Positions 4,895 through 63,812 of a stretch of 64,000 nucleotides of DNA are shown in pieces. Both the position numbers and the translations under genes were made by a program. Position 1 is the stretch's first letter; each line of letters starts with the position of its first letter. Below the pieces are notes generated by a model. It saw nothing but the letters and a program-made list of their open reading frames with translations. It was not told the origin of the DNA and did no database searches. This DNA comes from a virus: positions 46,364 to 110,363 of IMG/VR virus record IMGVR_UViG_3300033064_001806; one strand, written 5' to 3'.

Positions 4895-5524
4895 GTGATA
4901 AAGTTAATAGATATATTAAAAGAAATGGGGATTGATAAAGGTGCGTTCCATGGATTTGGAATGAAACCACAAGATATGCGTGTTGATAGTTGCAATGTGG
5001 AATGGACAAGTCCAGACCAAGATACTGGTTGCCCTGCGTTTTCTGATTCAACTAAAATTACAGAAGAAGATATTACCAAGGCAATCGAATATCTAAATAC
5101 GGAAAAACTAAAAACATTAATAGCATATTCAAGGGGTGGTGCAATATTATTACAAGCGTTATCTATGGGTGCTAAGAAACCATCAACAGTTTATTTAGTG
5201 GCTCCTGCTTGGAATAGACAATGGCCTACTGTGAGTTTAACTGGTTCTGAAGTAAACGGAAGTGGTGCAATAATTCATGGTGGTAGTGATAATGTAGTTC
5301 CATTAAAACATTCTGTAATATTAGCAAAGGCAAGTGGTATGCCATTATATGTGTTCCTTGGAATGAATCATGTTAGCATATTAAAAAACAAAGATAATCC
5401 AACTTCTGGAATACTATTGAAAAATTTAGAAAATGCTATGGAGGTTTTGCCAGATTGGGGTGCAAGTGGAAAAGCAACGGAAGAAGAGTTAAAAATGCAA
5501 GAAGAGTTTATAAATAATATTTGA
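4895..5524 (+). CDS. alpha/beta hydrolase with N-terminal KL..IL.E leader
   Basis: Likely GTG start giving MIKLIDILKE; nucleophile elbow 'AYSRGG', acid 'HGGSDNVVP', His 'MNH'. Confidence 0.75.
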   Translation: MIKLIDILKEMGIDKGAFHGFGMKPQDMRVDSCNVEWTSPDQDTGCPAFSDSTKITEEDITKAIEYLNTEKLKTLIAYSRGGAILLQALSMGAKKPSTVYLVAPAWNRQWPTVSLTGSEVNGSGAIIHGGSDNVVPLKHSVILAKASGMPLYVFLGMNHVSILKNKDNPTSGILLKNLENAMEVLPDWGASGKATEEELKMQEEFINNI

Positions 5525-6432
5525 GAAAAATTATCAGTAAATTAAGTGTATTATTAAATGAAGTTAGAGACTTCAGAAAAAATGCAATAGATAATGCTAA
5601 ATTTCGCCTTAGAGAAACATTCATTAATGAAGAAGGTGAAGACAAATCACAAGATGAAATAAAGGCAATTCTGAAAAAAGATTACTCTTCTTTTGTTAAA
5701 GAGTTGGGTGATAATATAAAAGATGAAAAATTTCTAAACGCTATAAAATCACTTTCTAACACATCACCTCTTAAAGTATCAGGAATGTCTCCCGTAGTTA
5801 CAGATTTACAACCAACACAGAATGAAGTTATAATGGATAAATCTTTAAGTTATCCACTAACAGATGTACCAAGTGCCGAACAATACTTAAAAGGTGGAGT
5901 GGTTGCCGTTGCAGGTAAATCAATTATAACATCAGGTGGTGGTAAGTATGTAATAGATGGACATCACAGATGGTCGCAAGTGTTGTGTATCAATCCAGAC
6001 GCTAAAATTAAAGCATTAGATTTAACAGACATTAAAAAACCGATTGAAGCATTAAAAGCAACACAGATTGGAATAGCTGCACAAACAGGTGCAGTTCCAA
6101 CCGCAGCAGGTGGTGGAGTAAACCTTTTTACAGTTGGTGAGGGTGAGTTAAAAAAATATGTTATTGATAAAATAAAAGAACCAGTTGTTGCTGTATTTGA
6201 AAAATATGGTAAAGGTGATACACCAGAAACAATTGCAGATTATATTTGGGAAAATGTTCAAATACTTAAAAAACAATCTCCCCCAGTAGCAGGTGCACCT
6301 AAACGTGATGTGATGCCACAAACAGATGATGCACCACAATGGGTTGACAATACTTTCAATGTAGAACAAATACCAGAAGAATTAACTAATCGATTCAAAG
6401 AACTATTACGGTATAACAACAGAAATAAATAA
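5521..6432 (+). CDS. ParB/sulfiredoxin-like domain protein with leader
   Basis: 'LQPTQNE' and 'YVIDGHHRW' ParB-N motifs; N-terminal 'KLSVLLNE'. Confidence 0.7.
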   Translation: MRKIISKLSVLLNEVRDFRKNAIDNAKFRLRETFINEEGEDKSQDEIKAILKKDYSSFVKELGDNIKDEKFLNAIKSLSNTSPLKVSGMSPVVTDLQPTQNEVIMDKSLSYPLTDVPSAEQYLKGGVVAVAGKSIITSGGGKYVIDGHHRWSQVLCINPDAKIKALDLTDIKKPIEALKATQIGIAAQTGAVPTAAGGGVNLFTVGEGELKKYVIDKIKEPVVAVFEKYGKGDTPETIADYIWENVQILKKQSPPVAGAPKRDVMPQTDDAPQWVDNTFNVEQIPEELTNRFKELLRYNNRNK

Positions 6433-6438
6433 AATCAC

Positions 6439-6467
6439 TGGGGACAAAATGTCCCCATGTTTATTTT
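6439..6467 (+). terminator. intrinsic terminator
   Basis: TGGGGACA-aaa-TGTCCCCA stem followed by a T-rich tract. Confidence 0.7.
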
Positions 6468-6475
6468 ACATAAGA

Positions 6476-6507
6476 TTTGAATATTAAACATTAAAACATT
6501 ATATTTG
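6476..6507 (+). promoter_or_regulatory. Bacteroidota-type sigma70 promoter (-33 TTTG / -7 TATATTTG) for the replication operon
   Basis: TTTG 6476-6479, 20-nt spacer, TATATTTG 6500-6507. Confidence 0.7.
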
Positions 6508-6567
6508 TACTAACATATTGAACGATATGAGTTCAACATTATTTATTATTTATTAAGGAGTTACATC

Positions 6568-7338
6568 ATGGCTATCAATCTTGATGCAATTAAAAATCGT
6601 TTGTCTTCATTAAAAAACACAAACAATCGTGTTTCAAACATTTGGAAACCAGAACCAGGTGAACATCAAATCCGAATTGTTCCTTATGTTCACAACTTAG
6701 AAAATCCATTCATTGACCTTTACTTTCATTACAACATAGGAAAGCGGTCTATTCTTTCTCCTGTAACATATGGTCGCCCTGACCCTATTCTTGAGTTTGC
6801 TGAGAAGTTAAAACAAACAGGTGACAAAGAAGATTGGCTAATGGGAAGAAAGCTCGAACCAAAAATGAGAACATATTTACCAGTTATTATCCGTGGACAA
6901 GAATCTGAGGGTGTAAAGTTTTGGGGATTTGGTAAAATGATTTATGAAGAACTTTTAACATTTTTTGCTGATGAAGATTACGGTGATTTATCCGATCCTA
7001 AAAATGGGCGTGATATTGTAGTTACTGTTAAGTCAGCAGAAGAAATCGGTAAGTCTTATGCAGAAACATCTATTCGTGTTAAACCAAAACAAACACCACT
7101 TACAGAAAATGCTGCGGTTCTTGAGAAAGTTAAACAGCAACCAAAAATCAATGAACTTTATCCAGAACCAACTTATGATGAATTAAAATCCCAATTACAA
7201 ACTTGGATGGGAACTACACACGAAGATGTTGTAAAAAGTTCTACAAACAACACATATGGTAAAACCAGTAATTCAGAAGAACATACAAAAGCGGTAACTT
7301 CTTCAACAGTTGCTTCTTCTTTCGATGACTTATTTTAA
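6568..7338 (+). CDS. single-stranded DNA-binding protein (T4 gp32-like)
   Basis: 'WKPEPGEHQIRIVP', 'VKFWGFGK', 'DPKNGRDI', acidic C-terminus 'SFDDLF'; first gene of the recombination/replication cluster. Confidence 0.8.
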   Translation: MAINLDAIKNRLSSLKNTNNRVSNIWKPEPGEHQIRIVPYVHNLENPFIDLYFHYNIGKRSILSPVTYGRPDPILEFAEKLKQTGDKEDWLMGRKLEPKMRTYLPVIIRGQESEGVKFWGFGKMIYEELLTFFADEDYGDLSDPKNGRDIVVTVKSAEEIGKSYAETSIRVKPKQTPLTENAAVLEKVKQQPKINELYPEPTYDELKSQLQTWMGTTHEDVVKSSTNNTYGKTSNSEEHTKAVTSSTVASSFDDLF

Positions 7339-7352
7339 TAGGGATATACGTT

Positions 7353-8498
7353 ATGGCAAAATCAAAGAGTGACTTATCCGATGAACTCGGTGGAGTTATT
7401 GCAGAAACAATAAATAAAAAGTTCAAAGAACAGCATTTTAAAACCGCTTATTTTCTTGAGGGTGATAGTGATGCACCCACGATTGTAAAAGAATGGGTTG
7501 GTACTGGCTCAACAATTCTTGATTTGGCAATTTCAAATCGTAAGAATGGTGGATTTCCAGTAGGTAGAGTGTGTGAAATAACAGGATTAGAACAATCAGG
7601 TAAATCTCTATTAGCAGCACACGCTCTACTAAACACTCAAAGAAAAGGCGGACTTGCAGTTTACATAGACACAGAAAATGCTATCTCTACTGAATATCTA
7701 ACCGCAATTGGTTTGAACCTTAAAGACATGCTCTACATTCCATTGGATACAATGGAAGATGTGTTTGAAGCGGTTGAGGTTATTATTGAGAAGGTTCGTT
7801 CTTCCGATAAAAATAAATTGGTTACAATAGTTATTGATTCTATTGCCGGTGCATCTACTAAAACAGAGATGGCTGCAGATTTTGATAAAGATGGTTATGC
7901 TACTGCAAAGGCACTTATCATTTCAAAGGCAATGAGAAAAATAACAAATTTAATCGGTAGAGAACGCATTTGTCTTATTATCACAAATCAACTTCGTCAA
8001 AAACTAAATGCACCTGCATTTTCAGACCAATGGACTGCACCCGGTGGTAAAGCACTTCCGTTTCATGCTTCCGTTCGTATTCGTCTCTCTTCAATCGGTT
8101 CAATTAAAGTAAAGGTTGAAGGACATGATGAAATCGTTGGTTCAAGAGTAAAGGCTAAATTAGTAAAGAACAGAGTTGGTCCACCACTACGAGAATGTGA
8201 ATACGAGATTTATTTTGATTCTGGCATAGATGACTACAGTAGTTGGCTTACCACGATGAAAGATTATAACCTTGTTGCACAAGCAGGTGCTTGGTATTCA
8301 TGGACAAACAAAGAAACGGGCGAAGTTATTAAATTTCAATCGAAAGATTTTGTTGAAAAAATTATGAATCATCCAAAATTAAAAGAAATGGTTTATGATG
8401 AAATTGCTGATAAAGTAATTATGAAATACCAACAACTTGACTCTGCTCGTATTGATGAAGTAATTATTTCAAATCAGTCAATTGATACAGACGCATAA
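7353..8498 (+). CDS. recA: RecA/UvsX recombinase
   Basis: 'GGFPVGRVCEITGLEQSGKS' Walker A, 'YIDTE', 'IDS', 'TNQLR', 'GGKALPFHASVR', 'KNRVGPP'. Confidence 0.95.
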   Translation: MAKSKSDLSDELGGVIAETINKKFKEQHFKTAYFLEGDSDAPTIVKEWVGTGSTILDLAISNRKNGGFPVGRVCEITGLEQSGKSLLAAHALLNTQRKGGLAVYIDTENAISTEYLTAIGLNLKDMLYIPLDTMEDVFEAVEVIIEKVRSSDKNKLVTIVIDSIAGASTKTEMAADFDKDGYATAKALIISKAMRKITNLIGRERICLIITNQLRQKLNAPAFSDQWTAPGGKALPFHASVRIRLSSIGSIKVKVEGHDEIVGSRVKAKLVKNRVGPPLRECEYEIYFDSGIDDYSSWLTTMKDYNLVAQAGAWYSWTNKETGEVIKFQSKDFVEKIMNHPKLKEMVYDEIADKVIMKYQQLDSARIDEVIISNQSIDTDA

Positions 8499-9541
8499 TG
8501 AACAAGTATCAGAAACTACTTCAAGAAATAGAAACTGAGAAAGAACTACAAGGTAATTTACACCGCGATAGTAAGGTTTTGATTGTAGATGGGATGAACT
8601 TATTTATAAGAACATTCTCGGCTATTCCTTCATTAAATGAAGATGGTCAACATATTGGTGGTCTATCTGGCTTTCTCAAATCACTTGCTGCAACAATTCG
8701 TATGACGAATCCAACACGAGTCGTGATTGTCTTTGATGGGAAGGGTGGTTCACTAAGAAGAAAGAAAATATATTCAAATTACAAGGAAGGTAGAGCAAAT
8801 AAATCTAAATTAAATAGGGTTGCGGGTTTTGAGAATCTTGAGGATGAACAAAAGTCTATGAGGTTTCAACTGTTTCGTCTGTTTACTTATTTACAGAATT
8901 TGCCATTAACCATTATATCGATGGATAATATTGAGGCTGATGATGTTATTGCCTACCTTTCTTTTTATTTGAAAGAAAAATCTGTTATATTATCGAATGA
9001 TAGAGATTTTTTACAGTTGGTATCAGAACAAGTTTCTGTGTATTTACCAACGAAAAAAAAGTTATATACACCAGAAAATCTATTAGAAGAAACTGGAGTA
9101 TGGTGTGAGAATTTTATTTTATTCAAAGCATTATTAGGCGATAAGAGTGATAACATTAAAGGTATTAGTGGGTTTGGTGAAAAAACAATATTGAAACACT
9201 TCCCAATACTTTCAGAAAAAAGAAAAATTGATTTAGATATGTTCGTAGAATTTTGTAAATTGTATGATAATAAATCTAAAGCAATCAATGAACTCAAAAA
9301 TAACATTAGTGTATTAGAAACTAACTATAAGCTTATGCAATTACACGATGTTGATATTTCACAAAGTTTTAAATCATCTATACGTGGCATGGTCGATGGT
9401 GAAATCCAAAAACTAAATAAAATTGAATTGGACAAATTATTTATAGTAGATAAATTATACTCTGCTATACCTAATTTTGAACACTGGTTACAAAGAAATT
9501 TTGGAAATCTAAATACGATTCGGAATATATATGCAGGATAA
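8498..9541 (+). CDS. 5'-3' exonuclease / RNase H (T4 Rnh / FEN-like)
   Basis: 'IVDGMN', 'VFDG', 'YKEGR', 'EADDVI', 'SNDRDFLQL', 'GDKSDNIKGISGFGEKT'. Confidence 0.92.
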   Translation: MNKYQKLLQEIETEKELQGNLHRDSKVLIVDGMNLFIRTFSAIPSLNEDGQHIGGLSGFLKSLAATIRMTNPTRVVIVFDGKGGSLRRKKIYSNYKEGRANKSKLNRVAGFENLEDEQKSMRFQLFRLFTYLQNLPLTIISMDNIEADDVIAYLSFYLKEKSVILSNDRDFLQLVSEQVSVYLPTKKKLYTPENLLEETGVWCENFILFKALLGDKSDNIKGISGFGEKTILKHFPILSEKRKIDLDMFVEFCKLYDNKSKAINELKNNISVLETNYKLMQLHDVDISQSFKSSIRGMVDGEIQKLNKIELDKLFIVDKLYSAIPNFEHWLQRNFGNLNTIRNIYAG

Positions 9542-10883
9542 TTTATCCCAATACGGTCAAACGTTTCAAACAAAAGTAATTATTTCACTATTGAAAGATA
9601 GAGAATTCTTACAACAAGTGTCAGACCTTATAGATCCAACTTATTTTGAATCACAGGCAAACTCTTGGTTAGTTGAGAAGATTATTTCTTATTATGAGAA
9701 ATATAAAAGCCCACCAACATCAGATGTATTCAAATCTGAATTACTAGTGGTAGAAGATAAAATATTGAAAACAACGGTAGTTGATGCACTTAAACAAGTA
9801 AAAAAGTACACAGACAATTCAGATGATGAGTATGTTAAAAATACTGTACTTGAATTTTGTAAAAATCAAAAGATGAAAATAGCGATATTAGAATCAGTTG
9901 ATTTGTTAAGAAGTGGTAAGTATGATTTGATTAAAAAGAAAATTGATAATGCACTTAAAGCAGGAGCGGATAAAGATATTGGACATGAATATAAAATTGA
10001 TGTAATATCTCGCTATGCAGAAGGTGCGAGAGTGTGTGTTCCAACTGGTTGGAATATTATAAATGACATTATGTCAGGTGGGTTAGCAGAAGGAGAACTT
10101 GGTGTACTAGTTGCACCAGCAGGTGGTGGTAAGTCATGGGGCTTAGTGAGTGTTGCTGCAAATGCAGTTAAAGCAGGTAAACGTGTTATTTATTATACAC
10201 TTGAATTGAATCAACATTATGTTGCAAGAAGATTCGATGCTTACTTCACAAAGATTGCTTTTCAAAACTTAGGCGAAGAACACGCACAAGAAAAAATTAA
10301 ATCGGCAATGGAGAACTTAAAAGGTGAATTGATTGTTAAATATTATCCAACAAAAACTCCATCGATTAACACACTCACTTCACATATCGAGAAATGTATT
10401 AGTCAAGGCAAACCACCCGATTTGATTATTGTTGATTACGCAGACTTGATTAAACCCGCAAAAGCAGGTGATAAGAGATTAGAGTTAAACGATATTTACG
10501 AAGACCTTAGAGGAATTGCAGGTTTATATCAACTTCCAATTTGGACTGCTTCACAAGCAAATCGTTCTTCATTGGAAGACGATGTTATCGAAGGTGGTAA
10601 GGTTTCAGAATCATATAATAAAATGATGATTGCTGACTTTGTAATGTCACTATCAAGGAAGTTAGATGACAAAGTTGGTGGCACAGGTAGATGGCATATT
10701 ATTAAAAATAGGTTTGGTCCAGATGGCATGACGTTTCCAAGTAAGGTAAACACAATGACTGGCCATATAGAAATATACGAACCTAACTCCGATATGGGTA
10801 AAACTGTAACGGTTACTATGAAAGGTGAAAAGAATGTAAAGAAAGCACTTTCACAGAAATTCAAAGAATTAGAAGGATTCTAA
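9531..10883 (+). CDS. replicative DnaB-like helicase (gp41-like)
   Basis: Walker A 'APAGGGKS', 'YTLE', 'IVDYAD', 'TASQANR', 'KNRFG'. Confidence 0.92.
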   Translation: MQDNLSQYGQTFQTKVIISLLKDREFLQQVSDLIDPTYFESQANSWLVEKIISYYEKYKSPPTSDVFKSELLVVEDKILKTTVVDALKQVKKYTDNSDDEYVKNTVLEFCKNQKMKIAILESVDLLRSGKYDLIKKKIDNALKAGADKDIGHEYKIDVISRYAEGARVCVPTGWNIINDIMSGGLAEGELGVLVAPAGGGKSWGLVSVAANAVKAGKRVIYYTLELNQHYVARRFDAYFTKIAFQNLGEEHAQEKIKSAMENLKGELIVKYYPTKTPSINTLTSHIEKCISQGKPPDLIIVDYADLIKPAKAGDKRLELNDIYEDLRGIAGLYQLPIWTASQANRSSLEDDVIEGGKVSESYNKMMIADFVMSLSRKLDDKVGGTGRWHIIKNRFGPDGMTFPSKVNTMTGHIEIYEPNSDMGKTVTVTMKGEKNVKKALSQKFKELEGF

Positions 10884-10985
10884 TACTTATACAATGCTAT
10901 GTTATAAAGCAGAATTACCTAATTTTGAGTGGTGGGACGGTGAAAAATGGGTTATGAAATAATTTTATTAAAACCCAATTTTTTT

Positions 10986-11023
10986 AATCAAAACCATATA
11001 CTTATTCGTATATGGTTTTGATT
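10986..11023. repeat. perfect 16-bp inverted repeat upstream of RNR
   Basis: AATCAAAACCATATAC-ttattc-GTATATGGTTTTGATT. Confidence 0.85.
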
Positions 11024-11070
11024 TTTATAATAAAAATGACGTTTTCAATAAAAAAATGATGGAGAAATAA

Positions 11071-12924: not shown

Positions 12925-12966
12925 TTTTATATAGTTATTGTATATGTAAACATCACAGTAATTAAT

Positions 12967-13940: not shown

Positions 13941-14006
13941 TTTATCCCATATTTATATTTACAATAGTATTTTTCACATCAAGGCAAATATAAATGGGAT
14001 GGCGTA

Positions 14007-14215: not shown

Positions 14216-14569
14216 ATGAACATATCATCAAGAAAACAACTGTTAGCAGAAGCAGGTGATGTATTAAAAAAGATTCGTGAAGAAGTTGAAGGCCTCGATA
14301 AAAAAGTAGAAACTTCTGTTAAAAAAATAATTAAGTTCTGTGAAGAAGATAAAGACATGGTATCAGGACTTCTTGAACTTGCAAAATTAGTTGGTGATAA
14401 AAAATACCAAAAAGTATTAGAAGCGGTAAAAGAAATTGTAAAAGCAGAAGAAGGCTCACACTATTTCATCGATCAATATATAACAGAAATTAAAAGTATA
14501 TTATTATCTGCTGCAAAAGAACAATTTAGCTCACAAGAGTTTGGTGTAATATATTCTGCAATCGGCTAA
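14216..14569 (+). CDS. hypothetical helical protein, paralog of 12967..13338
   Basis: Aligns by eye with 12967 ORF; N-terminal 'RKQLLAE'. Confidence 0.6.
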   Translation: MNISSRKQLLAEAGDVLKKIREEVEGLDKKVETSVKKIIKFCEEDKDMVSGLLELAKLVGDKKYQKVLEAVKEIVKAEEGSHYFIDQYITEIKSILLSAAKEQFSSQEFGVIYSAIG

Positions 14570-21227: not shown

Positions 21228-21274
21228 ATTATATATTTATAGTAAACAAATTCGTTTACTCATAGAGAAGCATT

Positions 21275-21904
21275 ATGTCAAAACTAAGTAACATATTAAA
21301 AGAAAGTGGTTTATCGAGATTGGTTTACCACATGGAAATGCACGATTGCGGTACAATTACAGCCTTCCGCTCTAAAGAAGGGTGTGGTTTACCTGAAGAT
21401 TTACCGTATGCTCTACAAGATAACAAAAAAAGAAATGCACAATTAAAAGCAAAACTTGAAATGATGGGGTATGGAACAACAGCAGTTAAAGGTGCTTACA
21501 TTGAAAACTACGGAACACCTGAAGCAATTGAAGTACGTGAAGATGTTTTCTTTGTTGTGGATTTACAAGATAAAGGAAAACTTGAAGCAGATTTAAGAAG
21601 ATTGGGTGAAGAGTATATGCAAGATTCTATTTTGCTTATACCAAGGGGCGGTGATGGTTCTATTCTAATCGGTACAAACCAGTGTTCAGATTATCCAGGA
21701 TATGGAAGAACAATGCAATTCAATGATAGACAAATGGGCAAAGGTGGGCAATTCATGACAAAAGTAAAAGGCAGACCTTTTATATTTGAATCTGACTTGC
21801 TTGAACAAATTGGAAACCATAACTATTATAGTGTTGCAAACAACATGGGTAAGTGGGCAATGAAAACTATTGCAAATAAAAATTGGAAAGATATACAAAT
21901 TTAA
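21275..21904 (+). CDS. putative SAM lyase (T3 SAMase-like) with N-terminal leader
   Basis: Ordered motifs 'ITAFRS', 'NKKR', 'GAYIE', 'VRED', 'YMQDSIL' match T3 SAMase 'VSAFRS', 'NMSR', 'GCYRE', 'TEEK', 'WEQDCVL' as I recall them; leader MSKLSNILKE; ATATTTATA at 21233. Confidence 0.7.
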   Translation: MSKLSNILKESGLSRLVYHMEMHDCGTITAFRSKEGCGLPEDLPYALQDNKKRNAQLKAKLEMMGYGTTAVKGAYIENYGTPEAIEVREDVFFVVDLQDKGKLEADLRRLGEEYMQDSILLIPRGGDGSILIGTNQCSDYPGYGRTMQFNDRQMGKGGQFMTKVKGRPFIFESDLLEQIGNHNYYSVANNMGKWAMKTIANKNWKDIQI

Positions 21905-30357: not shown

Positions 30358-30737
30358 GGAATAAAATGTCAATTAAAGAAATAGACTTAGGTAGAAAACA
30401 AAATAGTGTTGTTTCTGAAATGGAAGAAAAGTTTCCTACTATGACTAAAGAATTTAAACGTATTCAACAAGAACAGTACGAACTATTCTGTGCAAAACAA
30501 AAAAACTATGGTCCAGATAATATATCAATGGGTACAACATTAGAAAGAGAGGAAGACAGAAAACTTTCTTTACAAGGTTTATTCTTTCGTATTAACGATA
30601 AAATAAACAGATACAAACAAATGATTATGTTTGGTTCACAAGATGCAGTTGGTGAATCCTTATATGACACATTCAAAGATATTTCTGTTTATGGAATTAT
30701 CGCACAACTTGTTCAATCTGGTAAATGGGGGAAATAA
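30354..30737 (+). CDS. nucleotide modification associated domain protein (DUF1599/Nmad1-like, MazG-like fold)
   Basis: 'KQKNYG', 'RINDKINR', 'ESLYDTFKDISVYGII'. Confidence 0.7.
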   Translation: MRNKMSIKEIDLGRKQNSVVSEMEEKFPTMTKEFKRIQQEQYELFCAKQKNYGPDNISMGTTLEREEDRKLSLQGLFFRINDKINRYKQMIMFGSQDAVGESLYDTFKDISVYGIIAQLVQSGKWGK

Positions 30738-31894
30738 TGAGTACATATATATGGACTTCGGAATATGTAAGTGAAGGTCATCCTGATAAAATAGCTGACC
30801 AAATTTCAGATGCAATTCTTGATTGGTATTTACAAAGAGATCCAGACGCAAAGGTTGCGTGTGAGGTTATGGTAAAGGATAGTGATGTTTATGTTTCTGG
30901 TGAAATAAAATCAACGGTTGATAAAGATAAAAGAACTTTAGAATTATCACTAACTAGATTAATTAAAGGACTTATAAAAGACATTGGCTATACAATAGAA
31001 GAATCACCATTCTTCAATTCAGAGTATTGCCGTATTCACTTTAATATATCAACTCAATCATCAGAGATTAATCAAGCGGTTGATAAAGGTGATGTTGTTA
31101 CAGCAGGAGACCAAGGTATTATGTTTGGTTACGCTACTCGTGAAACTCCAACATATATGCCGATAGCAATTTACTTGGCTAAAAAACTAATTGACGTTGC
31201 AACAGATATTAGAAAAAAAGGTAGTAAATTAGGTCATGTACAGAAACTTCGTCCCGATATGAAGAGTCAAGTGTCTGTTACGTATAAAGATAATAAAGCA
31301 GTAGGTATTCATTCTGTTGTATTTTCAACTTGTCATTCTGAAATGATTTCACTTGAACAACTTAGAAAGTATTTCCATTCTGATATTTTACCAACGGTAT
31401 TAGAAAGTATTCCAGAAGAACTTGCGGAACTATTTACAGATAAAACTGTTTACCATATAAATCCAGCAGGTGAATGGAATGTTGGTGGTCCAGTTTCTGA
31501 TTGTGGATTAACAGGTAGAAAGATTGTAGTTGATCAATACGGTGCTGATTGTGAAATTGGCGGTGGCGCTTTCTCTGGCAAAGACCCAAGTAAAGTTGAT
31601 AGAAGTGCAGCGTATATGGCTCGTCATATCGCTATAACAACACTTCATGAAAATGAAGAAGCAAATAAAATTAAAGTTCAATTGGCATATGCAATCGGTG
31701 AAGAGTTTCCTGTTTCATATCGTATATTTGATCCAACAACTTGCAAAGAATATGGACTTGGTAAATTTACTCACGCTGATTTAACTCCAAGTAGAATCAT
31801 TGAAAGATTAAAATTAAAAACTCCTATTTATTTACAAACTGCCAAGTATGGTCATTTTGGAAATAAAGATTTAGAATGGGAGAAAATTGGATGA
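30737..31894 (+). CDS. metK: S-adenosylmethionine synthetase
   Basis: 'SEYVSEGHPDKIADQISDAILD', 'AGDQGIMFG', 'GLTGRK', 'GGGAFSGKDPSKVDRS', 'YGHFG'. Confidence 0.96.
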   Translation: MSTYIWTSEYVSEGHPDKIADQISDAILDWYLQRDPDAKVACEVMVKDSDVYVSGEIKSTVDKDKRTLELSLTRLIKGLIKDIGYTIEESPFFNSEYCRIHFNISTQSSEINQAVDKGDVVTAGDQGIMFGYATRETPTYMPIAIYLAKKLIDVATDIRKKGSKLGHVQKLRPDMKSQVSVTYKDNKAVGIHSVVFSTCHSEMISLEQLRKYFHSDILPTVLESIPEELAELFTDKTVYHINPAGEWNVGGPVSDCGLTGRKIVVDQYGADCEIGGGAFSGKDPSKVDRSAAYMARHIAITTLHENEEANKIKVQLAYAIGEEFPVSYRIFDPTTCKEYGLGKFTHADLTPSRIIERLKLKTPIYLQTAKYGHFGNKDLEWEKIG

Positions 31895-32382
31895 AACTAA
31901 AAGACTTGATAATGGAAGCATTTACTCTTAGTGGTAGAGTTATGTTATATCACTTTTCAAAAGAAGATTTAGGAAATGTAGCAGTTCTCGATCCGGCATT
32001 ATCAAGTCAACGTCCATCTTCTTGGTCACGTAACGATTATAAATTATCGAAAGTACCAAGAGTATTTTACTATACAGACTTAACAAAAGTTGAGCATATG
32101 GTTAAAACTAATAATTTATATGCAGCAGAATATGATGGTACTAAAATACTAAACGTATCGCAGGTATTGAAGGAGTATCAAACAAATCCAGATTCACTTG
32201 CTATCAAAAATCCAAACGCTTTCAAAATAATGCAATCGTCCGTAAACCAATATGGTGTATTAGATTACGATGCTATGTTAAGAACAGCCGGCCAATTCTT
32301 TAGTGGTGTATTCTACGATACTGGTAACTTACCAATTGTCAATTTATTCGTACCATTAAGGGCAAAAAAACAAAATGTCTGA
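31891..32382 (+). CDS. leader-tagged protein, possible ADP-ribosyltransferase-like fold
   Basis: MKLKDLIME leader; 'LYHFS...LDP...RVFYY' strand pattern. Confidence 0.45.
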   Translation: MKLKDLIMEAFTLSGRVMLYHFSKEDLGNVAVLDPALSSQRPSSWSRNDYKLSKVPRVFYYTDLTKVEHMVKTNNLYAAEYDGTKILNVSQVLKEYQTNPDSLAIKNPNAFKIMQSSVNQYGVLDYDAMLRTAGQFFSGVFYDTGNLPIVNLFVPLRAKKQNV

Positions 32383-33320: not shown

Positions 33321-33371
33321 TTAGTACATACTTATGTATGTATGGAATTCATATAAACATTGGAGAAAATC

Positions 33372-46271: not shown

Positions 46272-46462
46272 CACCTAAATCTATACATAAGATAGCTACT
46301 AAGATGGATGTAGCATGGGATGGCGATAAAAATTTTATGTCATGGTGTCAGACAATTGTTGGTAAAGAACATTTAGATGATATGTCAGAAGTTGAACTCA
46401 TTATGATTTACAATAGATTAAAAAATGGTAAATTTCCAGAATCACTAAGAGCAAATGAATAA
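46268..46462 (+). CDS. hypothetical protein
   Basis: 64-aa ORF overlapping both neighbours. Confidence 0.55.
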   Translation: MTPKSIHKIATKMDVAWDGDKNFMSWCQTIVGKEHLDDMSEVELIMIYNRLKNGKFPESLRANE

Positions 46463-51020: not shown

Positions 51021-52268
51021 ATGAATAGGTATAAAGTACTATTAGAAAATGAAAGAAAAATACTCACTTCTGTTAACAGATTAATAAGTGAAGGTAGCAA
51101 ATTAACCGATGCTGAAAAGGCAGAAAGAGAAGCTGAAAAAGCAAGAATAAAGGCTGAAAAAGAAGCTAAAAAAGCAGACAGATTAACTGCCACAGAATCA
51201 GAAGATGTTATAGTTGATATGTGGAATACCGCTGTCAAAGGTAAAGATATACCAAAGAAATATGCAGATAGAGGATTTGAACCATTGTTCAATTCTGTAA
51301 AACCGTATGCTAAAAGTCCAGCTACTGTATATGGAAAAAAGAAGTTAGCAACTTCTGATTTATGGAAAGATGTAACTGGTAAGAAGACTGATACTTCGAA
51401 AACGGATGTTATTGGAGACAAAAACTATTCAGTTAAGTATGGACCAGCACAACTAATGTCAGGAGCACCAAACGAAGCAATAGCAACTTTACTCGCTGCT
51501 TCAGATAAGTGTGGACTTTCTGATGCGGCACAACAAAAAGCACATGATTTATTAGATGAATTAAAGGGATATTCAATAAGAACAATTGGTGAAACAATGA
51601 ATCTTGCAGCTATTAGAAAACTTGGGGATAAAGAATCGATTACTAATGCATTAAATAAAAAGGCATACGGCTTTATTACAAAGGGAGAAGAACTTCAAAA
51701 AAAACTAACAAGCGAAATGCAAAGTATGTTTGATAGTAGTCAAGAATTTGAATTAGAATTTATATATGAAGCAATGACTGGTGCAGCAAAATTCACAGAT
51801 GCAAGCGCAATAGCAGATACAATGTTGTGTATTGATAAAGATGCAACAAGTATAAAAATAGAATCTGTTGCTGACTCTTCAAGTCCTTACGTAAAAAAAG
51901 TTATGGGTGCAACTACTATAAAAGCAAGTTATAAAGGAAGTTCATATACCTTGAAAACCGGTGTTACTGGATATACATTTAATACTGCGTTGAGGTTAAT
52001 TACTAAAGATTTAACCAAAGCAACAAATGAATGTATAATAGCTGTTAATTCGTACAACGGTAATATTATCAATGAAAATTTCTTTGATTTTGTTAAAAAA
52101 GCATGGGACAAGTTGAAAAATGTTTTTAATAAGATAAAACAATTTATAGTAAAATCTATTGAGTTTATTAAATCTGGATTTAAAAAATTACTTGAATTCT
52201 TCGGAATAGATGTTAACGTGGAAGGTTGGCAGGAATTGGATACTATTGATTTATATGATGTAGCATAA
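51021..52268 (+). CDS. hypothetical protein with possible PD-(D/E)XK-like core
   Basis: 'E...TSKTDV......SVK...QL' pattern; ATATTTAT at 50980; 'LLE/ISE/INE' sites. Confidence 0.45.
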   Translation: MNRYKVLLENERKILTSVNRLISEGSKLTDAEKAEREAEKARIKAEKEAKKADRLTATESEDVIVDMWNTAVKGKDIPKKYADRGFEPLFNSVKPYAKSPATVYGKKKLATSDLWKDVTGKKTDTSKTDVIGDKNYSVKYGPAQLMSGAPNEAIATLLAASDKCGLSDAAQQKAHDLLDELKGYSIRTIGETMNLAAIRKLGDKESITNALNKKAYGFITKGEELQKKLTSEMQSMFDSSQEFELEFIYEAMTGAAKFTDASAIADTMLCIDKDATSIKIESVADSSSPYVKKVMGATTIKASYKGSSYTLKTGVTGYTFNTALRLITKDLTKATNECIIAVNSYNGNIINENFFDFVKKAWDKLKNVFNKIKQFIVKSIEFIKSGFKKLLEFFGIDVNVEGWQELDTIDLYDVA

Positions 52269-52562: not shown

Positions 52563-53981
52563 ATGATAAAATTAAAAGACCTGTTGACAGATGCAAAGCA
52601 GACGCTTACAGAAACAGGAATCCGAAACATTAACGCATTAACAGCAACGAGAAACGAGGCTGTTATGTACTTTCACATGGACTTAGATGGTGTAACAACT
52701 GCAATCGGTATGAAAGCATACTTAGAAAAATATGGTGTTAAGTTAATAAAATGTGAAAAAATTCAGTATGGTGGTATGGAATTTGCAGTTCAAAAACCAG
52801 CACCTGGTTTATTAGTCGTTATCGTTGACTTTGCCCACGGTAAACCAATGGTACACATTCATACCGATCATCACCAATCACAAGCAGGTGTTGCTCCAAC
52901 TACATCGGGTGCATTCAAACACGCACCTTCAAATGTTGCAGCAATGTCTCAGGAAATTTCACCAACTGATTTATTTCCTACACAAGATATTCAAATTATA
53001 TCAACAGTTGATTCCGCTGACTTTGCTTCACAAGGTATTAATCCAGACCAAGTAATGCGTTCAGTATTTGAGTTCGATCCAACTATGTCTGCTGTACCAA
53101 ACCGTTTAGCAATGGGATTGGTAGTTAATAAAGTTCTTCTTGCATTCAAGAATAAACCTGGCTTCTTAGAAGCGTTAGTAATGAAAGCACGTCCTTCACT
53201 TGTTTCTATCTACAATGTAATTAAACACGAAGTTACAGCACGTGGTTTATCATGGGCAGATTTACCTGCTAAAACAGCATCATACCTTGCTTCACAAGCA
53301 CCTGGTATTAAGTTAAAACAAATAACAAGCCCACGGGAAATACAATCACTCGGTAGTGGTCAATACGCAATGTTTGGAACTTGCTTAGTTCAATACGGTG
53401 GTGGTACAATGACTAAAGGTGGATATGATAGATACACTCCATTCAAGATGAACCCAACTGCTGAGTACCTTGTAATTGGCTGGCCAATGGGATTGGTACA
53501 AGCAGCGAAGAATCCATTCAAGAAAGGTACAAATCCAATTAACTTGGGTGAGTTAGCGATGGGTATATTGAATAAGCACAAATCAGAACTTCAAGCAATG
53601 CAACTTACAATAGGTGATGTTAAGAGAATGATGGAAATGGATATTGCTAAAAAAGGAAGTTCAGAATCTGTTGGTTTCACTATGGATGACTTCATGGCTT
53701 TATTCGGTGAGGTTGCTATGAATTTACCTAAGAGTCCAGGATTTCAAAATATGGTAAAAGATATTGCAGGTAAACAATATAAATTCCTTTCATCAAAGCA
53801 AAAATCAATACTCGATGGTATAACAACAACGGTGTATGATGTTATAGTAAAAGGCTCAGGTGGGCATCGTGATATTACAAATATATCTGGTTTGAATTTC
53901 ATTGGTAAAGGTTACACAACATTCCTCAAACAATTGATGGGTGAGTTAGCGGAAGCGTTGGCAGACGCTCGATTACAATAA
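52563..53981 (+). CDS. DHH-family phosphoesterase with MIKLKDLL leader
   Basis: 'HMDLDG', 'VDFA', 'TDHH', C-terminal 'SGGH'. Confidence 0.8.
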   Translation: MIKLKDLLTDAKQTLTETGIRNINALTATRNEAVMYFHMDLDGVTTAIGMKAYLEKYGVKLIKCEKIQYGGMEFAVQKPAPGLLVVIVDFAHGKPMVHIHTDHHQSQAGVAPTTSGAFKHAPSNVAAMSQEISPTDLFPTQDIQIISTVDSADFASQGINPDQVMRSVFEFDPTMSAVPNRLAMGLVVNKVLLAFKNKPGFLEALVMKARPSLVSIYNVIKHEVTARGLSWADLPAKTASYLASQAPGIKLKQITSPREIQSLGSGQYAMFGTCLVQYGGGTMTKGGYDRYTPFKMNPTAEYLVIGWPMGLVQAAKNPFKKGTNPINLGELAMGILNKHKSELQAMQLTIGDVKRMMEMDIAKKGSSESVGFTMDDFMALFGEVAMNLPKSPGFQNMVKDIAGKQYKFLSSKQKSILDGITTTVYDVIVKGSGGHRDITNISGLNFIGKGYTTFLKQLMGELAEALADARLQ

Positions 53982-56264: not shown

Positions 56265-56319
56265 TATATTTGTATGTGAGATTAGTAAACAAACAAACAA
56301 CCAATTTAGGAACTTAGTT
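56265..56319 (+). promoter_or_regulatory. degenerate early promoter-leader cassette
   Basis: TATATTTGTATGTGAGATTAG...AAACAACCAATTTAGGAACTTAGTT-ATG. Confidence 0.7.
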
Positions 56320-56550: not shown

Positions 56551-56551
56551 T

Positions 56552-57099: not shown

Positions 57100-57167
57100 T
57101 AGAAGACTTTATTATTGGCGTAGGTATTATTAACGCTATTATATTTATGCTTATTTAGGATTTAGTT

Positions 57168-57500: not shown

Positions 57501-57561
57501 ACATTTTATACTACCCTTATATTTATATACGTTATGTTATATATTCTTAGGATATAGTGTT

Positions 57562-58260: not shown

Positions 58261-58271
58261 ATTAAAATTAG

Positions 58272-58279
58272 TATATTTG
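58272..58279 (+). promoter_or_regulatory. -7 promoter element TATATTTG for groES-groEL
   Basis: Intergenic. Confidence 0.55.
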
Positions 58280-58304
58280 TAGATATTATTTAAGGAGACG
58301 TTAT

Positions 58305-58598
58305 ATGAGATTAGCACCATTGCAAGATCGTGTGGTTATTAGTCCTAGAAAAGAAAAAGAAGTTACCGTCGGTGGAATTATCCTACCAGAATCACAAGAA
58401 GCCGGTGCTGTAAGAGGAGAAATTATTGCAGTAGGTCCAGGTAAGAGAGACGATAAAGGAAATTTAATTCCAATGGAAACGAAGGTTGGTGATAAGGTTA
58501 TTTTTGGAACTAAACTTTATGGAACAACTATTGCCATGGATGGAGAAGAAGTTGTAGTAATGCATGAATCGAACATATTAGCAATTATAGAAAATTAA
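58305..58598 (+). CDS. groES: co-chaperonin GroES
   Basis: 'PLQDRVV', 'GGIILP', 'AVGPG', 'KVGDKV'. Confidence 0.95.
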   Translation: MRLAPLQDRVVISPRKEKEVTVGGIILPESQEAGAVRGEIIAVGPGKRDDKGNLIPMETKVGDKVIFGTKLYGTTIAMDGEEVVVMHESNILAIIEN

Positions 58599-58616
58599 TT
58601 TTAGGAGATTATATAA

Positions 58617-60245
<1,629 letters not shown>

Positions 60246-60254
60246 TTATAGAAT

Positions 60255-60282
60255 AAACCCCTTGGATTCAAGGGGTTTTTTG
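60255..60282 (+). terminator. intrinsic terminator
   Basis: AAACCCCTTG-gatt-CAAGGGGTTT followed by T-run. Confidence 0.85.
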
Positions 60283-60302
60283 TTTATATCATATTTATAG
60301 TT

Positions 60303-60533
60303 ATGATAAAACTACTAAACATATTAACCGAAATAAACTTGATTCTAAAAGATAGAAGAGGTTTGCCCATTGGTATAGTTTCAATAGATAAAGATAAAAA
60401 CCAAACTCTAAGAAATAGAGCAGGTAGAATTCTTGGCTATTATAATAGTAAGCAAAACATAACAAGAGATCATACTAAAACTATTGTTGGTAAAGGTAAT
60501 TTACTAACATACTTAATAATAATATATAAGTAA
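60303..60533 (+). CDS. small leader-tagged protein with short beta-hairpin repeats
   Basis: MIKLLNILTE; 'LKDRRGLPIG', 'LRNRAGRILG', 'TRDHTKTIVG'; ATATTTATA at 60291. Confidence 0.65.
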   Translation: MIKLLNILTEINLILKDRRGLPIGIVSIDKDKNQTLRNRAGRILGYYNSKQNITRDHTKTIVGKGNLLTYLIIIYK

Positions 60534-60537
60534 CGCC

Positions 60538-61317
60538 ATGTCAATACCATCATTAGCATCGTTAATAAAAAGAAGAGATTTAAGTGGAGTAGTATCTGAT
60601 ACTGTTTCATATTTGGCTTCTTATCAACAAAAGAAAGTTCTATTTTTAACTACATCAACACGTTATCCATTTAACACCGGATATGATAAAGGTGGTGTAG
60701 AAGATGAACTACCTAAGTCAACTGAACTTGCTTTATTTATTACAGATAATATACCGAACAAATCAAGTTGGATTGATATTCCTCAGCTCAAAATTGTATC
60801 ATGTGAAGGGAATGTATCACATAAAACTGGTAATTCATGTGGGGTAATGGATTCGGTACTTAAAGATAAAAAGAAGAATCCAAGTGGAAATCACAGATGC
60901 TGGGCAAGTGTTAATGATAAATCAGACCAACTTTGGAAAGTATCTGATGAAATATTCAATGCAGATATTATATTATTCTTTGGCTCTATTCGTTGGGGAC
61001 AAACAAATGCACAATATCAAAAGCTCATTGAACGCCTAACTTGGTTAGAGAATCGCCATACTTCATTGGGTGAATCGAATTTACTTATGGGAAAACAAGC
61101 AGGATTTATTTGTATAGGGCAAAATTGGAATGGAGCAAACGTAGTTGGTGTACAGAAAAATGTATTGAACTTCTTTGGATTTGATACACCTGATAATCTA
61201 TTTTGGAATTGGCAATATACAACCGATGTAAATGATGAAACTCAAGAATCATATAAAATGTCTGATAAACAATTTCATTTAGATTTGGGAATACCAATGG
61301 AGATAAATTATGATTAA
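60538..61317 (+). CDS. flavodoxin-like NADPH-dependent FMN reductase
   Basis: 'TTSTR...S..LA', 'CEG', 'ADIILF..SIRWG', 'GKQAG'. Confidence 0.75.
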   Translation: MSIPSLASLIKRRDLSGVVSDTVSYLASYQQKKVLFLTTSTRYPFNTGYDKGGVEDELPKSTELALFITDNIPNKSSWIDIPQLKIVSCEGNVSHKTGNSCGVMDSVLKDKKKNPSGNHRCWASVNDKSDQLWKVSDEIFNADIILFFGSIRWGQTNAQYQKLIERLTWLENRHTSLGESNLLMGKQAGFICIGQNWNGANVVGVQKNVLNFFGFDTPDNLFWNWQYTTDVNDETQESYKMSDKQFHLDLGIPMEINYD

Positions 61318-61903
61318 GTTAAAAAACTTATTAGAAAACATGATGAGTGAAGATATACACAAAATGACTGATAAGGTGAAAAACTTTAAGCAGTTTGTAA
61401 ATGAACAAAAAATAAACGAAGATTTAGATTTATCTAAAGATTACGCTATACGAAATTTGTTTAGTAACTACGAAAAACAATATGAAGATGAATATAACGA
61501 AGATAATTGGGTAAAATACCATTATGGTAGTGAACATAAAGGTGGAGTTGATGCACTTAAAGAATCACTTGAATTAATAGGTGATGGTGAGATAACCGAT
61601 AAAGGTAATAAAAGTTTTATGTATAAGGAAATGTTAAAGAATGATTCATTAATTTTAGTGGTTCACGGCAGTTTAACAAAATCACCTTATGGTGGTATGG
61701 AAGGATATAAATATAGTTTAGGTGTATATAGAAATAATCCAAGAACACAACAAATTGGTGGCGGTTATGGTGCAAGTGGCATAATGAGTATTGAACATAC
61801 TAGATTATTGTCTTATGATGACTCATATATGATATTGTACAATCGTAATATTATATCAAAAGTATGTGATGATATTAAAAAATATGCGGTGAAAAATTTT
61901 TAA
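61310..61903 (+). CDS. leader-tagged hypothetical protein
   Basis: First 32 aa nearly identical to those of 61996..62562. Confidence 0.65.
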   Translation: MIKLKNLLENMMSEDIHKMTDKVKNFKQFVNEQKINEDLDLSKDYAIRNLFSNYEKQYEDEYNEDNWVKYHYGSEHKGGVDALKESLELIGDGEITDKGNKSFMYKEMLKNDSLILVVHGSLTKSPYGGMEGYKYSLGVYRNNPRTQQIGGGYGASGIMSIEHTRLLSYDDSYMILYNRNIISKVCDDIKKYAVKNF

Positions 61904-61995
61904 AAAGTGTTGTATTTGATAAATTAGGAATATCCATAGACCTTTTACCTGGATGGAAATACTATAAGTATAGAAAAAATTATTGGAGATAGATT

Positions 61996-62562
61996 ATGAT
62001 TAAGTTAGTAGACTTATTAGAAAACATGATGAGTGAAGATATACACAAAATGACTGATAAGGTTAAAAACTTTAAGCAGTTTGTAAATGAGAATTTAAGT
62101 AAAGAAATAGACACAGACTTGCGTGAATATGCTCAAGAATTTGTTTCTGACGAGTATGATTCAGATTTTGAACAAGAAGAAGCGTTAGAAAATATTTATT
62201 CTTTTATAGATAGTAAGTTCCCGTGTGGATTACAAAATATGCCAAGTAGTATTTTATTATATAGAATTTTAGATGTTAATATTAAAGATTTGAATAAAAA
62301 AAATATAGGTCAGCATTTTGTTGGGGACAAAAACAAACTGAAAGATGAAGTTTTTTTGAATTCAATTGAATTTATTGATAAATCCGAACTTCCATATAAA
62401 GTAAAAGAATATGGTACTATAGTAACAGTATCGGTAAACTTTTCTGATATTGATTTGTATGAAACAATTAGGACAAAAGGAAATTATCTAAACGAATGTG
62501 AATATACTGTTCGTAATATGAATTATGTTATTAAAAATGTTGAAAAAGCTAAATTAAGATAA
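61996..62562 (+). CDS. leader-tagged protein, possible ADP-ribosyltransferase-like fold
   Basis: 'LLYR', 'IGQHF', C-terminal 'ECEY' (E-x-E) pattern. Confidence 0.5.
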   Translation: MIKLVDLLENMMSEDIHKMTDKVKNFKQFVNENLSKEIDTDLREYAQEFVSDEYDSDFEQEEALENIYSFIDSKFPCGLQNMPSSILLYRILDVNIKDLNKKNIGQHFVGDKNKLKDEVFLNSIEFIDKSELPYKVKEYGTIVTVSVNFSDIDLYETIRTKGNYLNECEYTVRNMNYVIKNVEKAKLR

Positions 62563-62642
62563 GGAGATTATAATATGATTAAGTTAGTAGAATTCTATTG
62601 GATGGGTAAATAATAGCACTTTGATTGTATTGAAAAAATCCT

Positions 62643-62689
62643 TATATTTGTTCTGTTAGATTAATAACAGCCAATTAAGGAAATAAGTT
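62643..62689 (+). promoter_or_regulatory. degenerate early promoter-leader cassette
   Basis: TATATTTGTTCTGTTAGATTAATAACAGCCAATTAAGGAAATAAGTT-ATG; TTTG about 20 nt upstream. Confidence 0.7.
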
Positions 62690-63010
62690 ATGAAAGTATA
62701 TGATGATTCTGTAAATATTAGTGATTACACTGGTCTACTTATTTACAAAGGACATGAGTTCGTTCGTGAAGACATTGAACAGATGTTTTCGGTATTAGGT
62801 AAAAACACTTCATTAAACGTAATGCGATTACAACAATCGAAATGGGATTGGTGGTATGACTCAGAACGTAATGTTATTACATTGCAAGAAGTTATAGATG
62901 ATAATGAATCGGAAAAAATTGAAATGTGTTATGATGATATGTTACATATACTTAACTTTATGGATGAACATCCAGATGTGATAGTTGCTTCATATAAAGA
63001 TTTCCAATAA
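62690..63010 (+). CDS. hypothetical early protein
   Basis: Follows the cassette. Confidence 0.6.
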   Translation: MKVYDDSVNISDYTGLLIYKGHEFVREDIEQMFSVLGKNTSLNVMRLQQSKWDWWYDSERNVITLQEVIDDNESEKIEMCYDDMLHILNFMDEHPDVIVASYKDFQ

Positions 63011-63036
63011 TGTTTTGTTTATATCCAACAATTCCT

Positions 63037-63098
63037 TATCTTTGTAATGTAAGATGATGAACAACCAATTAAAAACAACCAATTAAGGAAAATATTGT
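63037..63098 (+). promoter_or_regulatory. early promoter-leader cassette copy
   Basis: TATCTTTGTAATGTAAGATGATGAACAACCAATTAAAAACAACCAATTAAGGAAAATATTGT-ATG. Confidence 0.75.
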
Positions 63099-63296
63099 AT
63101 GAAACTATTTCAAACAGAAGAGATACATGGCGTGGTATCGTATGTAAATCCAGAATACATCATAGATATACGTGATAACTATAATAGACAAAAAATTTCA
63201 GTCGGTAGTAAGATTCATGTTCAAGGTGCTATGGTATCTACATTCTATGATGTTAGAACACCTGAAGAGATTGCTGAGATATTAAGGGCTTTATAG
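63099..63296 (+). CDS. small hypothetical protein
   Basis: 'YVNPEYI...V.TPEEI'. Confidence 0.6.
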   Translation: MKLFQTEEIHGVVSYVNPEYIIDIRDNYNRQKISVGSKIHVQGAMVSTFYDVRTPEEIAEILRAL

Positions 63297-63359
63297 TATT
63301 ACCACTAACGTTTTGCAGCTAACAGAAGGGCGGGAATTATTAACAAATTAAAATAAAAG

Positions 63360-63812
63360 ATGAAAGATTTGAGAAAGTTTATTAAGACAACAATACGAGA
63401 GTTTTTGAATGAAAACAATCAAAAGTATGAAGTTGTATATAGAGGACAACCTTCCGATGTGGAAGATATTTCACCAAGAGATTCTATTTGGGTTACTTAT
63501 GATTATGATTTTGCGAATGAATATGGAAATGTAAAAGAATACAAACTACCTAAAAATCTTAATATTTTAGATACTGATTATTATAGTGAGTGGGAAAGTT
63601 TGGTAGATGAATTTGATGAAAACGGTGACTATGATGAATATAAATATGAACCAACAGATGAATTTATATTGTTTTTAAGTTCAAAAAAATATAATGGATT
63701 TATGAATGGTGATAATATTTTGATATTTAATAAAGCTTCATTTTATAAACAAATGCTTGTGCAGCCATTTTTGTTAGGTGCTGTTATAGGTAGTAAAATT
63801 TACGGATTATGA
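63360..63812 (+). CDS. leader-tagged ADP-ribosyltransferase-like (ART-PolyVal-like) protein
   Basis: Leader 'LRKFIKTTIREFLNE'; 'VYRGQ', 'IWVT....A..YG.V', 'NILD', 'YNG'. Confidence 0.55.
   Translation: MKDLRKFIKTTIREFLNENNQKYEVVYRGQPSDVEDISPRDSIWVTYDYDFANEYGNVKEYKLPKNLNILDTDYYSEWESLVDEFDENGDYDEYKYEPTDEFILFLSSKKYNGFMNGDNILIFNKASFYKQMLVQPFLLGAVIGSKIYGL

Follow-up and report, generated by a model that had tools for sequence, protein, structure and literature searches.

Why should genes that otherwise have nothing in common begin with the same short peptide? The question arises in IMG/VR virus record IMGVR_UViG_3300033064_001806, a 110,363-bp viral contig of 32% GC in which all real genes lie on the + strand, and more precisely in its final part, the 64,000 nucleotides (nt) from position 46,364 to 110,363 that were analysed here and are called the window. 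In eight open reading frames (ORFs) of the window, the N-terminus reads M-(I)-K-L-x-(D/N)-(L/I)-L-x-E or is one residue shorter than this. As argued below from sequence, this leader is probably a T4-type capsid-targeting sequence (CTS) that is also the propeptide of a prohead protease. The initial annotation of this DNA had reported the eight N-termini, and all of them are present as described (window positions; aa, amino acids):

4895-5524, + strand: leader MIKLIDILKE, 209-aa protein with a weak alpha/beta-hydrolase match, in a late-type unit
5521-6432, + strand: leader (MRKI)ISKLSVLLNE, 303-aa protein with a predicted ParB/Srx fold, in a late-type unit
21275-21904, + strand: leader MSKLSNILKE, 209-aa putative S-AdoMet lyase family protein, late-type motif 42 nt upstream
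31891-32382, + strand: leader MKLKDLIME (9-residue form), 163-aa protein with a predicted ADP-ribosyltransferase (ART) fold, in an early-type unit
52563-53981, + strand: leader MIKLKDLLTD followed by AKQTLTE, 472-aa DHH phosphoesterase-like protein, in a late-type unit
60303-60533, + strand: leader MIKLLNILTE, 76-aa protein, late-type motif 12 nt upstream
61310-61903, + strand: leader MIKLKNLLE with a 22-residue extension ending in FVNE, 197-aa protein, module in common with 61996
61996-62562, + strand: leader MIKLVDLLE with the same 22-residue extension as 61310, 188-aa protein with an unrelated body, module in common with 61310

The leader is an N-terminal helix of 9-10 residues, with hydrophobic side chains at positions 1, 4, 7 and 8, Lys at 3 and Glu at 10; the Glu falls at 9 in the forms without residue 2 or residue 9. 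Among 21 distinct leaders, Lys-3 is present in all 21, Leu-4 in 20, Leu or Ile at position 7 in all 21 and Leu-8 in 19, and position 10 is Glu in 18 and Asp in three. Across the 132 ORFs of the contig, the pattern K[LF]xx[IL][ILM]xE occurs six times within the first 15 residues, as against none at 33,349 internal positions. Canonical 10-mers at fixed positions number five where 0.03 are expected (Poisson P = 2e-10), and nine proteins carry the motif within their first 16 residues, compared with 0.73 on average and never more than 5 in 2000 shuffles. The comparison was extended from the contig (G000) to five relatives, namely G001, G002, G003, G004 and Microcystis phage Mel-JY01 (W01). The leader was found in all five, with no match for a reversed-pattern control, and it is retained on orthologues despite the drift of its own sequence. 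The 32 leader ORFs of the six genomes fall into 23 groups that are unrelated by BLAST.

The DNA directly upstream of the window encodes the kind of head in which such a leader could work, with a T4-like portal (Portal_T4, gp20, 1e-73), a prohead protease (Peptidase_S77, gp21, 1e-29) and a Gp23 capsid protein (1e-78); the ORFs that follow the capsid gene are assigned, from their size and order, to sheath, tube and tape measure. The protease matches PF03420 at 1e-29 and 5.5e-31 in separate searches and was found in all five relatives. A His and a Ser aligning with T4 gp21 His85 and Ser140, which we take to be the catalytic residues, are invariant in these S77 proteases. Cleavage sites can be compared as well: the T4 gp23 cut FLTE/A aligns with QL(I/V)xE/(S/A) in six capsid proteins, and the N-terminus QLLVD-T of the protease itself aligns with QLLIE-T of T4 gp21. 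The T4 propeptides, read from NC_000866, are as follows (a slash marks the cut):

IPII and IPIII: MKTYQEFIAE/A
IPI: MKTFKEFTSTTTPVSTITE/A
gp24: MAKINELLRE/S
gp22: MLKEQLIAE/A
gp21: MNEPQLLIE/T
Alt N-terminus: MELITE…

The propeptide of gp24 has almost the same pattern as the leader of the window. In the CTS of IPIII, residues 4 and 7 serve targeting and residues 8 and 10 processing, and an Asp at position 10 stops cutting while targeting is unaffected (PMC9026906). Three leaders carry such an Asp-10, among them the N-terminus of the protease, MLKMKQLLVD; in the other two, those of 52563 and of the lyase orthologue in G001, a second (L/I)-x-E follows a few residues further, as in T4 IPI.

By analogy with T4, a tagged protein would be made together with the head proteins, and its leader would dock it onto the scaffolding core during prohead formation. 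The S77 (gp21-like) protease would then cut after the Glu, following an (L/I/V)-x-E rule, and the freed protein would remain in the head and enter the cell with the DNA. Docking, cleavage, presence in the virion, injection and an anti-defence or takeover role are all steps that we infer from this likeness; candidate roles are the depletion of S-adenosylmethionine (SAM) by the lyase, ADP-ribosylation as by T4 Alt, and hydrolysis of nucleotides or signals by the DHH enzyme.

What do the leaders precede? The initial annotation spoke of unrelated enzymes, which holds in part. Distinct families and folds (PF23780, DHH, ParB/Srx, ART) are found; the candidate hydrolase, 4895, is the weak case, with a Pfam Abhydrolase_1 match below the cut-off (E 1.2e-4) and an alpha/beta hydrolase match in the PDB at E 0.014. 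Its start codon, GTG, lies two codons into an ORF whose ATG is at 4889, and it is supported as a start because the G001 orthologue begins ATG-MIKLIDLLKE.

The protein at 21275 is, judging by its profile match, a member of the S-AdoMet lyase family (PF23780, 41.9 bits against a curated cut-off of 28, E 1.2e-10). This family has more than 1000 representatives, of which the N-termini of 150 were examined. Its domain starts at S(S/G)LSR, a motif preceded by Glu in 108 of 115 cases and with Leu or Ile at P3 in 94 of 115, and everything upstream is hypervariable, being either a leader of 5-25 residues or a module of 150-200 residues; in ~90% of the representatives, this variable stretch closes with (L/I)-x-E. 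Orthologues start, for instance, with MSKLSNILKE/SGL, MAKLKHLLPDKQLNE/SGL or MQFKQYILGE/SSL, and the leaders of the family include MKTYKDFLNE and MELITE, the latter being the first six residues of T4 Alt. In other phages, the lyase module is the C-terminal part of proteins of 350-570 aa (P0261, P0267-P0269, P0277, P0290 and others). These fusions join the upstream module through the same (L/I)-x-E/S(S/G)LSR junction, which suggests that they could be cut by the protease. The same phage that carries the tagged, late-type lyase gene (21275-21904) also has an early-type ORF (30725-31894) that, from its N-terminal residues alone, is presumably MetK, the SAM synthetase.

For 52563 itself, Pfam gave no match at E below 0.01. 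More than 3000 homologues are found, many of which, at 48-56% identity, carry PF01368 (DHH), and the sequence has the DxD, D and DHH motifs (HMDLDG, VDFAHG, TDHH), pointing to a DHH phosphoesterase-like protein. The N-termini of the family follow MIKLKDILKE-x4-E/SGIRN in near members and MNILEKID...NE/SGIRN in distant ones. A search of cultured-phage records gave no homologue of this protein other than in two huge uncultured-phage genomes.

Structural models served for two other proteins. That of 31891 (AF2 pLDDT 85.8) places the leader in a separate low-confidence helix, residues 3-11, and is matched by MbcT and ParT (Z 7.0) and by AcrIF11 (Z 6.1), with rmsd of 3.5-3.9 over 114-123 residues; a language-model search gave ART-PolyVal as a lead (0.91), and the modelled protein is ART-like in fold. 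Its start, an internal ATG of an ORF beginning at 31876, has a few bases in common with the end of the preceding ORF (30725-31894); nearly all of its 18 homologues begin at or near MKLKDLI, as MKLKDLI(K/R)E. The model of 5521 (AF2 pLDDT 86.5) has SerK, ParB and sulfiredoxin as matches (Z 5.2-4.9), and DGHHRW is invariant in its family; the model shows a ParB/Srx-like core. For both proteins, Foldseek E-values are weak (0.011, 0.047), and the folds are read from consistent ART or ParB/Srx hit lists at Z 5-7 only. Searches of PDB sequences with 52563 and 5521 gave nothing useful. The start of 5521 is a TTG with the leader four codons in, and close homologues begin MSKLSVLL; of 365 homologues, 120 N-termini were read and most carry leader variants (e.g., MIKLMDLLKE, MKNSLKxLVNE), other starts being MRKIISKLSVLLNE, MKSLLKGLVKE and MGILKQLLKE. 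In all three of the lyase, DHH and ParB-like families, most of the N-termini read carry a leader. A 334-aa protein encoded just after the capsid gene (genome 21004-22008) matches phrog_2859 in the region 361-459, as does 5521, and may be another ParB-like protein, encoded within the head module.

The smallest tagged protein, 60303, would after removal of its leader have 66 aa and a computed isoelectric point of 10.4, resembling a T4 internal protein; its G002 orthologue begins MIKLMDILLE. Pfam and PHROGs gave no match for 60303, 61310, 61996, 51021, 14216 or 63360, of which the last three belong to the less regular N-termini of the window:

14216-14569, + strand: probable member MNISSRKQLLAE, 117-aa protein, behind the late-type motif at 13949
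51021-52268, + strand: possible member MNRYKVLLE, 415-aa protein, first gene of a late-type unit that also holds 52563
63360-63812, + strand: doubtful variant MKDLRKFIKTTIREFLNE, in an early-type unit
8498-9541, + strand: look-alike MNKYQKLLQE, 5'-3' exonuclease (flap endonuclease), in an early-type unit

Three variants had been proposed initially. Membership of 14216 is probable because its orthologues in G001 and G002 begin MKSLKLKSLLIKE; that of 63360 and 12979 is unsupported, since no orthologues were found (for 63360, in the five relatives) and both lie in early-type units. For 51021, membership is possible; its W01 homologue aligns from residue 55 on, i.e., beyond the leader. Three more carriers lie in the head region upstream of the window, these being the protease already mentioned, a 182-aa protein (…IKLKKLLDE) and a 762-aa protein (…KVLQLIKE).

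The tagged genes are also linked by what precedes them. Two promoter-like motifs recur in the window:

21233-21240, + strand: ATATTTAT, a late-type promoter-like 8-mer, before leader gene 21275
3120, 3560, 13949, 21233, 50978, 60291: copies of ATATTTAT before leader units
45679, 57141, 57519: further copies of ATATTTAT
6501, 17315, 25158, 28642, 47263, 54340, 58273, 62644: copies of ATATTTGT, early type

Of the 29 genome copies of ATATTTAT, 21 lie no more than 80 nt upstream of a gene; the motif is found in front of the portal, sheath, tube and tape-measure operons, among others, and wherever a structural operon has an intergenic gap it stands 26-63 nt upstream of that operon. The ATATTTGT or cgtATATTTGT class is found in front of genes for replication, the clamp and GroES and of small early genes. 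Outside the structural part, leader genes divide into 7 late and 1 early and the other genes into 15 late and 58 early, an association of the leader with an upstream ATATTTAT motif (7/8 against 15/73, Fisher P 3e-4) in a crude assignment that gives each unit to the nearest upstream motif, ignores terminators and derives its "late" label only from the motif preceding structural operons. In two cases (window 60291-60305, genome 8839-8853), the late-type motif is only 12 nt before the ATG; the transcript would therefore start at or near the start codon, and leaderless mRNAs are possible there.

If the leader is an address that can be passed from one protein to another, traces of such exchange should be visible, and the genes 61310 and 61996 show one. 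From the ribosome-binding site (RBS) to codon 32, they share ~108 near-identical nt (window 61270-61405 and 61956-62091), encoding the leader and 22 residues ending in F-V-N-E with few differences. This identity ends right after the V-N-E codons, and what follows, bodies of 165 and 156 codons, shows no relationship (BLASTP E = 6). The two genes are thus not independent instances of the leader, having a 32-residue N-terminal module in common, which narrows the initial claim of unrelatedness to their bodies; on the other hand, a portable tag would be expected to recombine at just such a motif, one that resembles a cut site. A second trace comes from the comparison with G002, whose capsid protein is 88% identical. 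Downstream of GroES/GroEL, the two contigs have the same flanks and the 76-aa leader protein in common, and in the slot after it G002 holds two other leader-tagged ORFs, unrelated to those of G000.

The proposal of a capsid-targeting tag is therefore supported in part. It is sustained by all those of its predictions that could be checked in the sequence, i.e., the S77 protease, the capsid cut site, the T4-like layout, the unrelated bodies, the selection on the peptide discussed below, the promoter link and the portability, and weakened by the loss of two of the three variants and by the look-alike on the exonuclease at 8498. The latter also qualifies the statement that no replication gene has the leader, which is not strictly true. 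The match of 8498 to PF02739 (2.3e-32) starts at residue 26, after a 25-residue N-terminal extension that carries MNKYQKLLQE, and G001, G002 and G004 retain the Y-x-x-L-L-x-E pattern, which G003 and Mel-JY01 lack; replication-type proteins are therefore not wholly free of it. Other observations weigh on the same side as this flap endonuclease and the crude promoter classes. The (L/I)-x-E tripeptide is common, with 423 internal copies, and the Glu that precedes SGIRN and SSLSR may belong to the folded domain. The ART-like 31891 is the sole core member in an early-type unit, and at least one gene, the 899-aa ORF at 14593, seems to be mislabelled late, the layout suggesting an early replication gene. 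The contig is ~62% complete according to CheckV, and the literature search yielded nothing published about Mel-JY01 or about the virion proteomes of this lineage.

Could the shared N-terminus be something other than an address for delivery? A more modest view is that the tag is a signal for the prohead core or its protease, and that the tagged proteins act in assembly only or are degraded in the head instead of being delivered as effectors. The protease and scaffold-region proteins do carry similar N-termini (MLKMKQLLVD, MNDLLKE), and T4 gp22, gp67 and gp68 have such sites and are degraded; however, the S-AdoMet lyase, ART-fold and DHH cargo has no obvious role in assembly, the turnover of the repertoire between close relatives is typical of accessory conflict genes, and T4 Alt and the Ips are injected (PMC9026906), all of which makes this view unlikely. 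We regard as very unlikely that the N-terminus is recognized by some other partner, either a modifying (radical-SAM) enzyme or the GroES/GroEL pair of the phage. The position of the groES and groEL genes, directly upstream of the leader cluster at 60303-62562, invites the idea; yet an early-type motif precedes them, and Mel-JY01 has leaders and no BLAST match to GroEL or GroES. A tag linked to a radical-SAM enzyme was rejected: PF04055 is absent from G000 and from four of the five relatives (G001, G002, G004 and Mel-JY01), including a complete genome, with one sub-threshold match in G003, while S77 is present in all.

The remaining alternatives deny the peptide a function of its own. The conserved element might lie in the nucleotides, as a translation-start enhancer in a host poor in Shine-Dalgarno sequences or as a cassette for recombination or homing, and the peptide would then be a by-product; the 5' codons are A/T-rich, and the near-identical module of 61310 and 61996 includes the RBS. 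Against this, synonymous variation is free: in the conserved columns, 45% of the pairs with identical residues use different codons, Ile is encoded by ATA in 8 cases and by ATT in 8, and five Leu codons are used at position 8. Selection therefore acts on the peptide, whose hydrophobic 4/7/8 and Glu-10 pattern is kept across families with drifting sequence. A nucleotide-level signal was rejected on this codon variation and retains only a slender probability. Least credible of all is an origin by chance, from the composition of an AT-rich genome whose 32% GC favours the residues I, K, L, N and E, or by descent, as the ancestral N-terminal domain of one paralogous family; 61310 and 61996 do have 32 residues in common. 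Chance is rejected by the counts and shuffles given above, and a single family by the 23 BLAST-unrelated groups, by the bodies of 61310 and 61996, and by the lack of relationship among bodies at the level of BLAST, Pfam and fold.

A capsid-targeting leader would thus place this phage beside the T-even phages, whose diverse internal proteins, in the account of Repoila 1994 as relayed in PMC3012670, PMC9026906 and PMC12373910, have only the CTS in common. The likeness includes an N-terminal leader of ~10 residues, with hydrophobic positions 4, 7 and 8 and Glu-10, on otherwise unrelated proteins, a gp21/S77 protease, loci that are plastic between relatives, and one ART-fold cargo, comparable to Alt. 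The differences are several. The leader is MIKLxDLLxE instead of MKTYQEFIAE, the host is probably a member of the Bacteroidota, and the system is predicted here from sequence. Moreover, the leader genes are scattered, whereas those of T4 lie in one or two loci, and the cargo is mostly enzyme-like, of 20-50 kDa, unlike the small GmrSD inhibitors. In T4, gp24, gp21 and gp22 carry their propeptides as structural or core proteins, while the pattern here is found on accessory enzymes. The mechanism would be that of the T-evens, and what is new is the different leader, the probably different host phylum and the scattered, enzyme-rich cargo. Our literature search found no paper carrying the T-even CTS principle over to this lineage, and Petrov 2010 (PMC2993671) is silent on internal proteins.

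Inner-body or ejection proteins of phiKZ, 201phi2-1 and SPN3US offer another parallel, as a protease related to gp21 (gp175/gp245-type) cuts many of these head-internal proteins after Glu and they are delivered into the host (PMC9026906, PMC5694885). In those jumbo phages with virion RNA polymerases, however, the cleavage context is another, the propeptides are long, and there is no short common tag. Iyer, Aravind and co-workers have reportedly described polyvalent proteins of phages and conjugative elements, in which conflict enzymes (ART, ParB-like and others, with ART-PolyVal PF18760 among them) presumably accompany the DNA. The ART-PolyVal lead of 31891 recalls them, but polyvalent proteins are domains fused in giant proteins, whereas the proteins described here are mostly encoded by separate genes, each with its own leader, fused lyase forms being found in other phages.

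Leaders of this kind are not restricted to one sequence. Flavobacterium phage immuto carries MIKLIDLLTE, and Mel-JY01 has three leaders. The DHH-encoding contigs G005-G008 (29-32% GC), from more distant uncultured phages, have a leader of their own, M(R/K)(L/F)xx(Y/F)(L/I)xE (MRLxxYLNE), on 4-10 unrelated ORFs each, up to 10 ORFs per 50-60 kb (loci L143-L159), with 0-1 internal matches. This class, which is nearer to the T4 IP leader than MIKLxDLLxE, came from direct reading of the contigs; a search of G005-G009 for an MNILEKI-type leader pattern gave no match. A second leader class, MxIIEKID (MxIIEKIDxxxxE), also occurs in G005-G008, and G009, with its T4-like head module, has neither of the two classes.

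It is quite possible, if somewhat short of probable, that lineage-specific N-terminal address codes are general across the uncultured T4 superfamily (MIKLKDLLKE here, MRLxxYLNE and MxIIEKID elsewhere, MKTYQEFIAE in T-evens), that the injected proteome is dominated by enzymes, and that cargo is gained at the boundary between leader and cut site. The injected proteome could then be read from sequence, and its enzymes would act ahead of all phage gene expression, with a SAM lyase directed at SAM-dependent restriction or BREX, a DHH enzyme directed at nucleotide-signal defences, and ART and ParB/Srx enzymes besides. If the tag works as in T4, it would mark from sequence only the proteins delivered with phage DNA, a class that is hard to find and that includes anti-restriction factors such as T4 Ip1-3, which counter GmrSD (PMC12373910). 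The tagged set is rich in enzymes and extends far past the T-even phages into abundant uncultured aquatic phages; it would yield candidate proteins of pre-emptive counter-defence and, for phages of Bacteroidota, a natural tag for packaging proteins.

As to the phage itself, its closest cultured relatives by capsid protein are Mel-JY01 (70% identity) and immuto (56%), and many IMG/VR contigs are nearer than these two. The consensus of the Bacteroidota -7 box is TAnnTTTG. A Bacteroidota host is likely because of the kinship with immuto and because the early-gene motif cgtATATTTGT fits this box. GroES and GroEL are encoded at window 58305-60245, behind an early-type motif and directly upstream of the densest cluster of leader genes (60303-62562), and the phage GroEL gene is 66-67% identical in nucleotides to genes of Bacteroides phages.

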